DNA of 64,000 nt from an uncultured Nitrososphaerota archaeon (lineage in GTDB: Archaea > Thermoproteota > Nitrososphaeria > Nitrososphaerales > Gagatemarchaeaceae). The stretch lies in the NCBI GenBank assembly GCA_963703285.1, contig OY969807.1, positions 800,001 to 864,000 of the forward strand, given 5' to 3'. Shown here one piece after another: positions 59,506 to 60,528 of this stretch. Within the stretch, counting starts at the first letter, position 1, and every line of letters starts with the position of its first letter. The notes beneath the pieces were generated by a model. The model was not told the DNA's origin. It saw only the letters and a list, made by a program, of their open reading frames with translations, and did no database searches. The translations under genes were made by a program, and so were the position numbers.

Positions 59506-59598
59506 TAGCCCGGCTAGGATTCGAACCTAGGTCACCGGCTCCAAAGGCCAGTATGCTTGACCGACTACAATCGGCAAGGTTTCCCTTTCCACCGGGCT
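59506..59598 (-). tRNA. tRNA-Gln(UUG) with a 19-nt intron at position 10/11 (59570-59588)
   Basis: After splicing: AGCCCGG TG GTGT AGTCGGTCAA GCAT A CTGGC CTTTGGA GCCGG TGAC CTAGG TTCGAAT CCTAG CCGGGCT A. CCA is not encoded. Confidence 0.92.
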
Positions 59599-59604
59599 TC
59601 CGGG

Positions 59605-60240
59605 CTACCAGGGAGTCGGCTTTACCGAGGTTAAAAACCTGACCAACCTCGAACGCTTCGCACCAATCAGCCCAAATTTCTTCAGAAAGTGAGCCGTATC
59701 TTCCGGCCCATAGAGATACAATCCGTGCATCGTCTTGCCGCGCTTTTCATATTTGTAGGTGTGCGGCCTCAAGTTTAGGGAAAAGAGATATCGCCTCAAC
59801 TCTGCGAGAAGCCTCGGTTCCAGCATCTCTATTGTCAGCCTTACGTACCTCTTATCCTTCACCGACCCTTCAACTGAGAACAGACCGCAGATGAACCCTC
59901 GCAATACAGCATCGCAATCTCTTGCAACATTGGGAATCGAGAGCTTCCCAGTTTTCTTACCAGTTGGGTGGCCCCCTAAGGTTGTGTAGTATTCGTAGAC
60001 AATCCTGCTGCAGTAGTAGATTTCAGACCAGTTTCCGCGCTTCCGAGTGCCGGGCGTAACGTTGAAAACCTTCTTCGTGAGAAAGGCGTAGGCCTCCAAA
60101 ACTTCGGCGTCCCCTTCGGAGAAGTCGATTCTCCATTTCCCGTTCCTAGCCGCGTAATCCCGTGGGCAGATGTGGCCATCTCCGTAAAGCATTCCTAGAA
60201 GCACCCCTAGATCTCGGGTGTTTGGTTCGGGCCACCACAC
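59605..60240 (-). CDS. Free-standing two-motif LAGLIDADG homing endonuclease
   Basis: LGVLLGMLYGDG and FICGLFSVEGS motifs; lower GC. Start GTG 60240 or TTG 60342. Confidence 0.85.
   Translation of the reverse strand: MWWPEPNTRDLGVLLGMLYGDGHICPRDYAARNGKWRIDFSEGDAEVLEAYAFLTKKVFNVTPGTRKRGNWSEIYYCSRIVYEYYTTLGGHPTGKKTGKLSIPNVARDCDAVLRGFICGLFSVEGSVKDKRYVRLTIEMLEPRLLAELRRYLFSLNLRPHTYKYEKRGKTMHGLYLYGPEDTAHFLKKFGLIGAKRSRLVRFLTSVKPTPW
59631..59637 (-). promoter_or_regulatory. TATA box of tRNA-Gln, embedded in the endonuclease 3' end
   Basis: TTTTTAA 33 nt upstream of tRNA nt 1. Confidence 0.55.
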
Positions 60241-60368
60241 GACATGCTTGGATCCTTTGATTCCGTATCCTTTGCCACGACGCTTCGCAAATGGCGGAGG
60301 TGCTCCAATGGCACTGCCATTAGGACGAGTCACGGTAACCAAGTCTTCGACAGTATTTCAATGCCACC

Positions 60369-60383
60369 CTGCACCACCGGGCT
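60369..60383 (-). repeat. Copy of the spliced tRNA-Gln 5' end (14/15 nt)
   Basis: AGCCCGGTGGTGCAG vs mature AGCCCGGTGGTGTAG; TATA-like CTTATCTA at 60420-60413. Confidence 0.7.
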
Positions 60384-60528
60384 AAGTCGTCCTCGCGCAC
60401 TTTCTTCTGAGCTAGATAAGCCTCTCTAGACTCTGCGCCCCAGATGCTTGATCCCCGGAAGATACCAGTCGAATGACACATGATGTGTGCCAACTATATT
60501 ACCTGCGTCAGGAGCAGAAGATCTTGGC

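Follow-up and report, generated by a model that had tools for sequence, protein, structure and literature searches.

How do introns reach archaeal tRNA genes, and could a homing endonuclease carry them there? The question is raised by a locus in which a LAGLIDADG endonuclease gene lies between a truncated copy of a tRNA-Gln 5' end (the stub) and a complete tRNA-Gln gene that contains an intron. Archaeal tRNA introns are short and ORF-less, their arrival in genes is unsettled, and to our knowledge they have no mobility machinery of their own. Among published views, a recombinase-borne insertion has been proposed for the arrival of a tRNA intron (excerpts of PMC3293823), the sections of a review drawn on here mention mobile elements solely as integrating into tRNA genes (PMC4090602), and the portion used of a 2026 census of Asgard tRNA introns names no general arrival route and calls the question open. 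In the openly accessible main texts that we searched, no homing endonuclease is described within or next to a bulge-helix-bulge intron of an archaeal tRNA.

The locus lies in a 64-kb window, the whole stretch of DNA analyzed here, and each of its coordinates was re-read on the minus strand. The architecture described by an earlier sequence-only reading is genuine: the upstream CTTATCTA box, a stub matching at 14/15 positions, a two-motif ORF, a TTTTTAA element and a tRNA-Gln with a 19-nt intron were all correctly placed. Along the minus strand the features are as follows.

60413 to 60420, minus strand: TATA-like box CTTATCTA, the putative old tRNA promoter, assigned by reading the sequence
60372 to 60383, minus strand: stub AGCCCGGTGGTG, an exact match to the spliced tRNA-Gln(UUG) 5' end, positions 1-12
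60354 to 60361, minus strand: TATA-like box TTGAAATA, which may be the endonuclease gene's own promoter
59605 to 60333, minus strand: LAGLIDADG endonuclease gene, 242 aa from the GTG at 60333, stop codon TAG at 59607-59605
59631 to 59637, minus strand: TTTTTAA, presumptive TATA box of the functional tRNA gene, within the last endonuclease codons (RFLT)
59600 to 59606, minus strand: leader mimic AGCCCGG, a 7-nt copy of the acceptor 5' strand, 1 nt ahead of the tRNA
59589 to 59598, minus strand: tRNA-Gln(UUG) exon 1, positions 1-10, from the sequence and ARAGORN
59570 to 59588, minus strand: bulge-helix-bulge intron of 19 nt after G10, with the same anatomy in 14/14 intron alleles
59506 to 59569, minus strand: tRNA-Gln(UUG) exon 2, positions 11-73, from Rfam RF00005 (34.1 bits) and ARAGORN

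The match to the Rfam tRNA model (59571-59514, 34.1 bits) covers only model positions 9-63, indicating that the 5' part of the tRNA is interrupted, and ARAGORN places a tRNA gene at 59505-59598, which its -i option identifies as tRNA-Gln(ttg). Exon 2 holds the D arm, the anticodon loop CUUUGGA, the T arm, the 3' acceptor strand and the discriminator A. Joined to exon 1, it gives a D stem of G10:U25, U11:A24, G12:C23 and U13:G22 and a 7-bp acceptor stem, and intron-less relatives carry precisely this joined sequence. The tRNA-Gln(UUG) gene is probably interrupted at D-arm positions 12-14 by an insert of ~790 bp, in which the LAGLIDADG gene is the only ORF >80 aa between stub and tRNA. Its longest reading frame runs from a TTG at 60342 to 59605, ending 8 nt before exon 1 and outside the 19-nt ORF-less intron. 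In the window 20 nt separate TTGAAATA from the in-frame GTG at 60333; a TAAATA-type box lies 19 nt from an in-frame GTG in 10/11 aligned related loci (counted by eye; L007, the exception, has no such box), and the sequence between box and GTG is variable among these loci. The second box, TTTTTAA, stands 24 nt upstream of the leader element and is the sole TATA-like box seen upstream of the tRNA in four endonuclease-free intron alleles (G009, G010, G005 and G008).

Two details of the earlier description fared less well. The 50 nt from stub to start codon, described as a structured spacer, fold at -8.1 kcal/mol with z = +1.64, and 194/200 shuffled sequences fold equally well or better. The sequence TAGCCCGG does occur twice (60384-60377 and 59607-59600), but the tRNA-proximal copy is the leader of the intron allele and no terminal repeat of a cassette. 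Among the metagenomic DNA contigs of 4 runs, some span both junctions with 0 differences; they are not independent support, since they possibly come from the sample that yielded the genome. Intron-less tRNA-Gln genes belonging to other organisms also turned up as loose ends among these contigs, and no contig joins across the cassette, uncovered parts being uninformative.

Is the stub the trace of an older gene, or chance? Its exact 12-mer occurs once in the 64-kb window; with up to 1 mismatch there are 2 matches against 0.48 expected, a number reached by 8/100 shuffles. Taken alone this chance test is weak, and the reality of the stub rests on recurrence: in 14/15 distinct endonuclease loci, five other genomes of the genus included, a stub precedes the tRNA 5' end by 785-805 nt, except that one of them, L064, has it at 712 nt because its gene has an internal deletion. 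The stub crosses the 10/11 junction, and when it is extended to 60369 the window sequence agrees with the tRNA at 14/15 positions; across loci conservation falls beyond stub position 12-14, and the old promoter and stub are better conserved than the non-coding DNA of the cassette. Six of the 14 stubs are exact, five have 1 mismatch, one has 2 and two have 3.

These changes bear on a rival reading, that of a single large endonuclease-encoding bulge-helix-bulge intron, in which the stub would be the true 5' exon, ~800 nt would be spliced out in the manner of archaeal rRNA introns, and the exon copy inside would have arisen by secondary duplication. The stub does end exactly at the exon junction plus UG, it retains C5-U8 as a possible partner for GCCG of the intron, conservation extends to the old promoter, and the stretch from the stub to the 3' splice site contains an ORF. 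However, 8/14 stubs are altered, and changes such as C5G, C3A, G6A, G2A, U8C and GG-to-UU would undo pairs of the acceptor stem or of the central helix, while the G7U change of three lineages mismatches the 3' strand of the working tRNA. In G020 the stub has U7, like the endonuclease-free, intron-less allele of G006, and the working tRNA has G7:C66. At locus L057 the stub is lost and the endonuclease gene broken, yet the tRNA is working; the internal TATA box alone would serve intron-only alleles; and the local exon, intron and leader are conserved across the class. The working intron is the 19-nt one, whose splice sites enclose no ORF, and an Rfam scan of 59000-61000 at E <= 10 gave the tRNA and two weak chance-level matches, with no match to any group I or group II intron model. 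We regard the large intron as improbable: by their sequence, the stubs look like recipient relics rather than working exons.

If the short intron is the working one, what is it, and did the cassette make it? In the window, its central helix joins C5-U8 to GCCG, the inner hairpin is AAGG-GAAA-CCUU, and the bulges are GG/A and AU/U. All 14 intron alleles share a 4-bp central helix, two 3-nt bulges holding the splice sites (GG/A, or AG/U in G038, and AN/U) and an inner helix, in an ORF-less intron of 16-27 nt. Compensatory changes in the central helix (CCGU/GCGG in G037, GUCG in G012, AUCG in G009) go along with an inner helix of at least 7 different sequences among the 14 alleles and many more in the class census. 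An outer exon-exon helix was not seen by eye, save for a possible C4-G12 pair, which makes this a relaxed bulge-helix-bulge, a form that broad-specificity splicing endonucleases of this lineage alone cut (PMC4090602).

The fold has a second component. In the window the bulge-helix-bulge lies 5.1 kcal/mol above the minimum-energy fold (constrained folding), which counts against the reading favored here. In the predicted arrangement the leader takes the 3' acceptor strand and the true 5' strand makes the splicing helix. By a script anchored on exon ends, the leader pairs with the 3' strand at 7/7 positions in 11/14 intron alleles and at 6/7 in the other 3, with covariation in G037, and this helix is part of the minimum-energy fold of 13/14 intron alleles and of the window pre-tRNA. 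The leader TAGCCCGG is present in 14/14 intron alleles; the 13 intron-less alleles offered one possible partial copy (G018, by eye). We found no description of an acceptor-strand leader copy in the openly accessible main texts searched, and its class-wide occurrence is a separate lead on the way in which the splicing enzyme is presented with introns of the acceptor and D region.

The intron and leader together occur in 110/401 sampled genomes of the class (108/399 without G169 and G399, both of which match), all of them without this endonuclease family, which was found in 0/400 other class genomes sampled; the intron-less junction occurs in 200/398 once three matching genomes (G267, G319 and G361) are left out. 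This distribution corrects the earlier reading on one point: the cassette did not make the mini-intron, and the 10/11 intron with its leader is old and common elsewhere in the class. Nor does the intron depend on the enzyme, being stable without such an endonuclease in those 110/401 genomes. Closer to the window the picture is different: among 11 genomes of the family's sister genera the intron signature is found in 0/11 and the intron-less junction in 6/11, which suggests that the intron entered the genus together with the endonuclease.

Within the genus, the locus can be followed through an upstream neighbor gene common to relatives, with flanks compared by pairwise tables and a neighbor-gene tree. 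It exists in three states: 6 genomes are occupied, 4 have the intron only, 9 are empty and 4 are untyped, counts that are limited by the kinship of these relatives and the incompleteness of many genomes. In the nine empty genomes, an intron-less tRNA sits under a promoter homologous to the one that precedes the stub. Two promoter classes can be told apart, each with empty and occupied alleles. The window flank around CTTATCTA can be aligned with the intron-less tRNA-Gln promoters of G014, G001, G003, G015 and G004, empty genomes of the first class; G006 is empty in the second class, whose promoter precedes the stub in G017, G019, G020 and G022. An intron-less tRNA-Gln directly under the upstream promoter had been predicted for endonuclease-free relatives, and the nine empty genomes bear it out. 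The locus is accordingly a chimera of an intron-less allele's promoter with positions 1-12, an endonuclease gene and an intron-bearing allele; the putative promoter CTTATCTA would be the heritage of the invaded intron-less allele, and its conservation could reflect a lasting function in cis.

The allele states interleave among close relatives, as judged by the neighbor gene. Its protein is 94.7% identical between the empty G001 and the intron-only G010 and 98% identical over 98 aa between G001 and the decayed locus L057, and in the neighbor-gene tree the empty G015 is sister to the occupied G012 (support 96/94). The four intron-only genomes (G005, G008, G009 and G010) have apparent remnants of the 3' end of the endonuclease gene: G008 retains ~70 nt at roughly 70% identity (estimated from the alignment), and the others mainly 13 nt beside the TATA box, which is weak evidence and could be promoter conservation instead. 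Counting these weak cases, 10/10 intron alleles of the genus have the gene or a candidate remnant of it, as against the 110/401 class genomes in which the intron occurs without the gene. From intact genes through disrupted ones to L057 and G008, the loci form what is, to judge by sequence, a decay series typical of homing elements. The sequence-only reading had held that endonuclease-free relatives carrying both the 10/11 intron and the stub would speak against it; such relatives do share the intron, and none has the stub. A chimeric tRNA body, with an intron-like D arm and an empty-like T stem, was considered as a co-conversion footprint and dropped, since the variable sites are too few and the partition is not clean.

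Does the gene encode a competent enzyme? Pfam finds PF14528 (LAGLIDADG_3; E 2.3e-8, with 34.6 bits where the cut-off is 22.5) in the second domain only, residues 146-224. Both motifs are present, LLGMLYGDG with its Asp codon at 60180-60178 and GLFSVEG with its Glu codon at 59871-59869; this Asp and Glu, which we take to be the catalytic residues, are invariant in 4/4 and 16/16 aligned rows. An AlphaFold2 model (pLDDT 89.5, pTM 0.88) agrees with two pseudo-symmetric alpha-beta-beta-alpha-beta-beta-alpha domains, and Foldseek returned 104 PDB matches at E <= 0.001, with intein and intron homing endonucleases at the top; among the matches were PI-PfuI, I-Tsp061I and I-DmoI (E 1e-7 to 1e-11), the target-normalized TM for I-DmoI being 0.72-0.75. 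The protein is accordingly modeled as a single-chain (monomeric), two-motif LAGLIDADG type. A search of the window gene for internal stops and frameshifts found none, and with its invariant acidic residues, good model and structural matches to homing endonucleases the protein looks competent.

Like the archaeal rRNA-intron enzymes I-DmoI and I-Tsp061I, it is a monomeric, two-motif archaeal LAGLIDADG protein of about their size (~200 aa), tied to a bulge-helix-bulge intron in a stable-RNA gene. In those introns, unlike here, the ORF lies inside the intron; here the intron is ORF-less at 16-27 nt and the gene is placed upstream of the promoter that belongs to the tRNA itself. Similarity in sequence is remote, the best match to any solved structure being PI-PfuI at E 0.026.

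We consider it probable, on the sequence comparisons above, that the locus is a homing cassette that installs a pre-existing intron-bearing 5' module into intron-less alleles, much as in collaborative homing. What remains of the invaded gene would be its promoter and positions 1-12, the intron-less state being that of the sister genera searched. The cargo would comprise the endonuclease gene, with an apparent TATA box of its own and a leaderless GTG start, followed by a second TATA box, the 7-nt leader, a fresh 5' exon and the short bulge-helix-bulge intron after G10; second TATA box, leader and exon 1 with intron would together be the 5' module of an intron-bearing tRNA-Gln allele. In the first step, the enzyme would cut intron-less tRNA-Gln(UUG) DNA around positions 10-14; that the stub ends at 12-14 and the intron lies at 10/11 points to a cut at or near the intron site. 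Repair would then copy the cassette from a carrier, with the tRNA body as right arm and the stub and old promoter as left arm. Immunity of the carrier would come from two breaks in the target, the intron in the working copy and the truncation in the stub. For the host a working tRNA would remain: transcription would start at the internal promoter, and the host's own endonuclease would splice the product. Once the cassette was fixed, its endonuclease gene would decay and then be deleted, giving intron-only alleles.

How widely might such a cassette have moved? Orthologs of 50-54% identity are present in 5/40 relatives, all five within the genus, and 5/5 lie directly upstream of an intron-bearing tRNA-Gln, as do 12/12 metagenome loci with downstream sequence, the distant L066 left out. 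The C-terminus is a read-through translation of leader and exon 1 in 8/16 aligned proteins. L066, a 40%-identical relative, stands before a tRNA-Gln(CUG) without the 10/11 intron. The intron is always at 10/11 of tRNA-Gln in loci of this architecture, so the idea that introns spread in this way to new positions finds nothing here to build on. In the window's own genome, the sole other LAGLIDADG match is weak (27% identical, 1594299-1594817) and has no tRNA within 1.5 kb; it was rejected as a second copy of the element. The genome's tRNA-Gln(CUG) (177691-177764) has no intron and is probably a poor target, since only 17/25 of its positions match the spliced UUG 5' end.

The family is tiny, with 18 proteins at E <= 1e-5 among 5.8 billion, and of the distinct full-length genes 6 are intact and 9 disrupted; with 9/15 broken, much of it is no longer mobile. 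The endonuclease lineages are mutually ~50% identical and appear to follow the old-promoter classes, and for these reasons the data demonstrate no recent move from one host to a distant other; the cassette may have been inserted once or a few times long ago and then inherited vertically, with losses. Together with the absence of the family from the 400 other class genomes, these same facts would suit a frozen relic, in which one ancestral rearrangement put the endonuclease and the intron-bearing 5' module into a resident gene and everything since has been vertical, decaying and no longer homing. Against it, both classes include empty alleles that have the matching old promoter, and an occupied allele could return to this state only through a precise deletion across a 2-nt repeat; deletion between the 10-nt repeats would instead leave an intron under the old promoter, a combination seen in 0/23 typed tRNA-Gln(UUG) alleles. 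Different allele states also stand beside neighbor genes that are 95-98% identical, and six stubs are exact although the neighboring non-coding DNA has diverged beyond recognition. We therefore think a frozen relic unlikely, if less so than the large intron.

The homing cassette has a counterpart in phages, in the pairs F-CphI with the psbA intron and T4 MobE with the nrdB intron (PMC2790892, in the part drawn on here). As in those systems, the endonuclease gene lies beside, not inside, a short ORF-less intron; the presumed target is an intron-less allele near the insertion site; co-conversion would take in both the enzyme gene and the intron; and the intron may outlast the decay of the enzyme. 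Unlike them, as far as the same part describes them, the locus pairs a LAGLIDADG enzyme (HNH or Endo VII-type there) with a protein-spliced archaeal bulge-helix-bulge tRNA intron (self-splicing group I there); its gene sits within the interrupted host gene, a duplicate of the 5' exon, a promoter and a leader travel along, a stub remains, and cleavage is putative.

A closer match in layout is the tRNA-Thr(GGU) gene of Caldiarchaeum subterraneum, as presented in the excerpts used of Sugahara et al. (2012; PMC3293823). There too a 5' tRNA fragment and its promoter are left upstream, a same-strand ORF-bearing insert lies directly upstream of a complete tRNA with an extra intron in its new 5' part, direct repeats of tRNA sequence flank the insert, and alleles with and without it coexist. 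That insert, of 1,868 bp with a putative DNA recombinase and present at six genome sites, was ascribed to a plasmid-like element (excerpts of PMC3293823). By this model, our locus would be the footprint of an integrase-type, tRNA-targeting element with the duplicated tRNA 5' ends as attachment-site repeats, and direct repeats of 10-12 nt from the tRNA 5' end do flank the insert that brought the new intron. We find this very hard to credit: the sole long ORF is a homing endonuclease, no tyrosine or serine recombinase is among the ORFs >80 aa between stub and tRNA, ~790 bp is too small for a recombinase, and the one weak second protein match in the genome has no tRNA within 1.5 kb. Unlike the six sites in C. 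subterraneum described in those excerpts, the element is found only beside tRNA-Gln, in at least 15 distinct lineages and with a decay series.

The locus gives rare sequence-level evidence on how archaeal tRNA introns can move between genomes: one site presents empty, occupied, decaying and intron-only alleles as a natural series, with a LAGLIDADG enzyme as the plausible motor of movement, and it shows a selfish gene residing in an essential tRNA gene without harm. We put at about even the chances that here, for the first time at the level of sequence, an archaeal tRNA intron is seen to be carried by a homing endonuclease into intron-less genes, the whole 5' module having been captured by the enzyme as an immunity-and-repair package, the stub of each invaded gene serving as left homology arm, and an old intron having moved horizontally into a genus with relatives that are without it. 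In that event the locus would offer a concrete and testable route of tRNA intron gain, and would widen collaborative homing from phage group I introns to the protein-spliced introns of archaea.

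The tRNA-Gln(UUG) gene of this locus is interrupted between positions 10 and 11 and lies directly behind a LAGLIDADG endonuclease gene, ahead of which stands a leftover 5′ end (the stub) of a spliced tRNA-Gln(UUG) behind an older promoter. Along the minus strand, the features are:

60420-60413, minus strand: TATA-like box CTTATCTA, the old promoter
60383-60372, minus strand: stub AGCCCGGTGGTG, equal to spliced tRNA positions 1-12 (14 of 15 bases match through 60369)
60361-60354, minus strand: TATA-like box TTGAAATA
60342-59605, minus strand: endonuclease ORF, from TTG at 60342 to TAG at 59607-59605, with an in-frame GTG at 60333
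59637-59631, minus strand: TTTTTAA, within the final codons of the endonuclease ORF
59606-59600, minus strand: leader AGCCCGG, a 7-nt copy of the acceptor 5′ strand
59598-59589, minus strand: tRNA-Gln(UUG) exon 1
59588-59570, minus strand: 19-nt insert (intron) in tRNA-Gln(UUG)
59569-59506, minus strand: tRNA-Gln(UUG) exon 2

When joined, the two exons form a normal D stem and a sequence identical to that of intron-less relatives. The Rfam tRNA model matches only at model positions 9-63 (59571-59514, 34.1 bits), and ARAGORN calls the gene at 59505-59598. The locus is flanked by a bactofilin-repeat ORF divergent from the old promoter (60487-61701, plus strand; PF04519, E 8e-14) and by a HicB-like ORF convergent on the tRNA (58757-59344, plus strand; a weak match, E 0.003, below cut-off). 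The conserved upstream neighbor gene lies ~4.3 kb from the tRNA in this genome versus ~0.1 kb in relatives. Elsewhere in the window, a match to the Rfam group II catalytic intron (RF00029; 39222-39320, plus strand; 45.5 bits, gathering score 40, E 1e-5) suggests that another kind of mobile intron is present.

The endonuclease matches Pfam LAGLIDADG_3 over residues 146-224 (E 2.3e-8) and carries the motifs LLGMLYGDG and GLFSVEG, with terminal Asp and Glu invariant across alignments. The top PDB structural matches of an AlphaFold2 model (16 input sequences, pLDDT 89.5) are homing endonucleases (E 1e-11 to 1e-7): the inteins TliVMA, PI-SceI and PI-PfuI, and the archaeal intron enzymes I-Tsp061I and I-DmoI. 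By sequence alone, PI-PfuI (E 0.026) is the sole solved relative. The family is very small: 18 of 5.8 billion proteins reach E <= 1e-5, and no annotation among them goes beyond "hypothetical protein." No orthologue turned up when 400 other genomes of the class were searched with an alignment, the single match sitting in a 1149-aa open frame that is probably an intein. The deposited gene call (P0001; 195 aa, 59608-60192, minus strand) begins at a Met within the first LAGLIDADG motif, and is most likely annotated from a wrong start, ~47 codons too late. Counted by eye, 10 of 11 aligned loci (the exception being L007) have a TAAATA-type box 19 nt ahead of an in-frame GTG, with variable bases in between, and the N-terminal extension that starts at this GTG is conserved at the protein level, which together suggest a leaderless start and a dedicated promoter for the gene. 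The old promoter may likewise remain active, for instance in transcribing the endonuclease gene. At the other end, half of the 16 aligned proteins have a C-terminus read through the leader and exon 1 (e.g., ...ARKQPGGG). Judged from tblastn HSPs, the gene is intact with both motifs in the window, G022/L062, G017, G020 (two masked bases in the gene), L058 and L061, and disrupted in G019, G012, L057, L059/L060, L063/L067, L064, L065, L070 and L071/L072.

Orthologues with 50%-54% identity were found in 5 of 40 relatives searched (G012, G017, G019, G020 and G022), all within the genus and all with an intron-bearing tRNA-Gln directly downstream. A scan of metagenome contigs added 16 loci; leader, exon 1 and intron are present in all 12 of these with downstream sequence, omitting the distant L066. 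The stub is found in 14 of 15 distinct loci with sequence upstream of the gene, a count that omits L063, L068 and L070 (no upstream sequence) and L066 (a different arrangement). Six stubs are exact, five have one mismatch, one has two and two have three; they lie 785-805 nt from the working 5′ end, or 712 nt in L064, whose gene has a deletion. In the one stub-less locus, L057, the gene and working tRNA are present and the old promoter is absent too. Past the stub, conservation falls sharply. Upstream of the window's stub, the sequence aligns with the promoter of intron-less alleles (G014, G001, G003, G015 and G004), while a different promoter (...CCTTTTTAACATTGGAA...), the one used by the intron-less allele of G006, precedes the stubs of G017, G019, G020, G022 and most metagenome loci. 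The G020 stub has U7, like the G006 allele, where it pairs with A66, while the working G020 tRNA has G7:C66, indicating that the stub derives from the invaded gene and does not partner with the 3′ half in use.

Two more distant endonuclease relatives were also seen. In L066, a 40%-identical relative (gene ~2001-2648) sits immediately upstream of a tRNA-Gln(CUG), with a complete tRNA-Gln(UUG) ~0.9 kb further upstream; both tRNAs (L066:926-1065 and L066:2709-2843), 80% identical over 142 nt, seem to carry long D-loop and T-arm inserts. In L068 (420-640), a 43%-identical relative lies directly upstream of an apparent tRNA-Gln(CUG) with a leader copy, a 10/11 intron and several more inserts, and the contig ends before the upstream side.

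From this anatomy, and from established features of LAGLIDADG homing, we propose that the enzyme would cut intron-less tRNA-Gln(UUG) DNA around positions 10-14. The right end of the break would invade the carrier's tRNA body, and synthesis would copy intron, exon 1, leader, promoter and gene; the left end, with the local promoter and positions 1-12, would then anneal to the carrier's stub. In the resulting occupied allele, the working copy would have a split target and the stub a truncated one. Such a mechanism would explain why stubs end at 12-14 in both promoter classes, why it is always a local promoter that precedes the stub, why conservation drops so steeply beyond the stub, and why stubs remain well preserved wherever elements are mobile or recently were, yet gain random changes.

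The locus is orthologous across relatives, with the same upstream gene in G000 (the window's own genome), G001, G009, G010, G012, G014 and G015 and more distant matches in G023, G024, G035 and G038. Among 23 genomes of the genus, including the window's own, six are occupied, nine have an intron-less tRNA-Gln (G001, G002, G003, G004, G006, G007, G014, G015 and G018), four have the intron without the gene (G005, G008, G009 and G010) and four are untyped (G011, G013, G016 and G021). Deletion seems to have produced the intron-only alleles: G008 retains ~70 nt similar to the 3′ end of the G020 endonuclease gene (identity estimated at roughly 70%), and AAAACTGGTTAGC beside the TATA box is common to G005, G009, G010 and the end of the L057 gene. 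For G005, G009 and G010 the evidence for a remnant is weak, as promoter conservation could account for the common bases. A tree built from the upstream gene, with one gene and 12 rows only an approximation of the species tree, places the empty G001 and G014, the intron-only G010 and L057, with its decayed gene, in a weakly supported, unresolved group (81/90); the upstream protein of G001 is 94.7% identical to that of G010 and 98% identical to that of L057 over the available 98 aa. The empty G015 is sister to the occupied G012, whose gene is frameshifted (support 96/94). Allele states are thus interleaved among close kin. The endonuclease lineages are deeply diverged and appear to track promoter classes, so that, less probably, the history may instead be mostly vertical with losses.

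The intron proposed to travel with the endonuclease has the same layout in 14 of 14 intron alleles: a central helix of C5-U8 with the four intron bases before the last two, a 3-nt bulge comprising G9, G10 and intron base 1, an inner hairpin of 2-6 bp with lineage-specific sequence, and a second bulge made up of U11 and the two final intron bases. Over 100 additional cases in the class census share this layout, and the central helix shows compensatory changes (CCGU/GCGG in G037, in step with an altered acceptor stem). The motif is a relaxed form, since no outer helix is seen past one possible pair. Constraining the window's fold to the bulge-helix-bulge motif costs 5.1 kcal/mol relative to the minimum-energy fold, so support for the motif is comparative and not thermodynamic. 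A second insert of ~18-26 nt occurs just 3′ of the anticodon, presumably the canonical intron position, in L005, L006 and L008 (G022, G017 and G019), L058, L063 and L070; the tRNA-Gln gene of G037 (L053) has an additional insert 3′ of the D arm.

Every intron allele also has, 1-4 nt ahead of the tRNA, the 7-mer copying the acceptor 5′ strand. The sequence-only reading had taken the tRNA-proximal TAGCCCGG for a terminal repeat of the cassette; given this ubiquity, it belongs to the intron allele instead. The leader pairs with the 3′ acceptor strand at 7/7 positions in 11 of 14 alleles and at 6/7 in the other three, and its changes are wobble-compatible (AGCUCGG) or covarying (AGCCCCG with CGGGGCU, G037). 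Of 14 pre-tRNAs, all but that of G017 include this helix in their minimum-energy fold; the window's own fold has it too (z = -2.46). By eye, 13 intron-less tRNA-Gln(UUG) alleles yield a single possible partial copy (G018). Our inference is that the 3′ strand is occupied by the leader while the splicing helix borrows the true 5′ strand; the leader may be a decoy that frees the latter. The literature searched yielded no description of such a leader.

In its proposed working the arrangement is like phage collaborative homing (PMC2790892), from which it differs in that the exon is duplicated and the intron is a protein-spliced one in a tRNA. In appearance it is close to the Caldiarchaeum tRNA-Thr case (PMC3293823), which has a recombinase where this locus has a homing endonuclease. 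An rRNA-type intron with an internal ORF was rejected, since the ORF does not lie between the splice sites of the working 19-nt intron. No description of this arrangement of homing endonuclease and tRNA intron was found in the literature searched.

The intron is older than the cassette. We searched 401 sampled genomes of the class, some incomplete, for leader, exon 1, a 14-30-nt insert and TGTAG. The pattern occurs in 110 (108 of 399 without the unpublished G169 and G399, which both match), against two for a reversed-pattern control, and is spread over families f15 (71/78), f12 (23/223), f4 (4/4) and f14 (4/4); the G046 match does not resemble the motif. The leader copy accompanies the 10/11 intron in these ~110 genomes of many families. 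The intron-less junction occurs in 203 (200 of 398 without the unpublished G267, G319 and G361, which all match), including 158/223 in f12 and 1/78 in f15. Among 11 genomes from other genera of the window's family, none yielded the intron signature and six yielded the intron-less junction, and the G022 intron equals that of G027, from another family, save for its last base. Taken together, these tallies and this likeness suggest that the genus was ancestrally intron-less at the tRNA-Gln 10/11 site, and that the intron module entered it with the endonuclease, derived from an allele type common elsewhere in the class.
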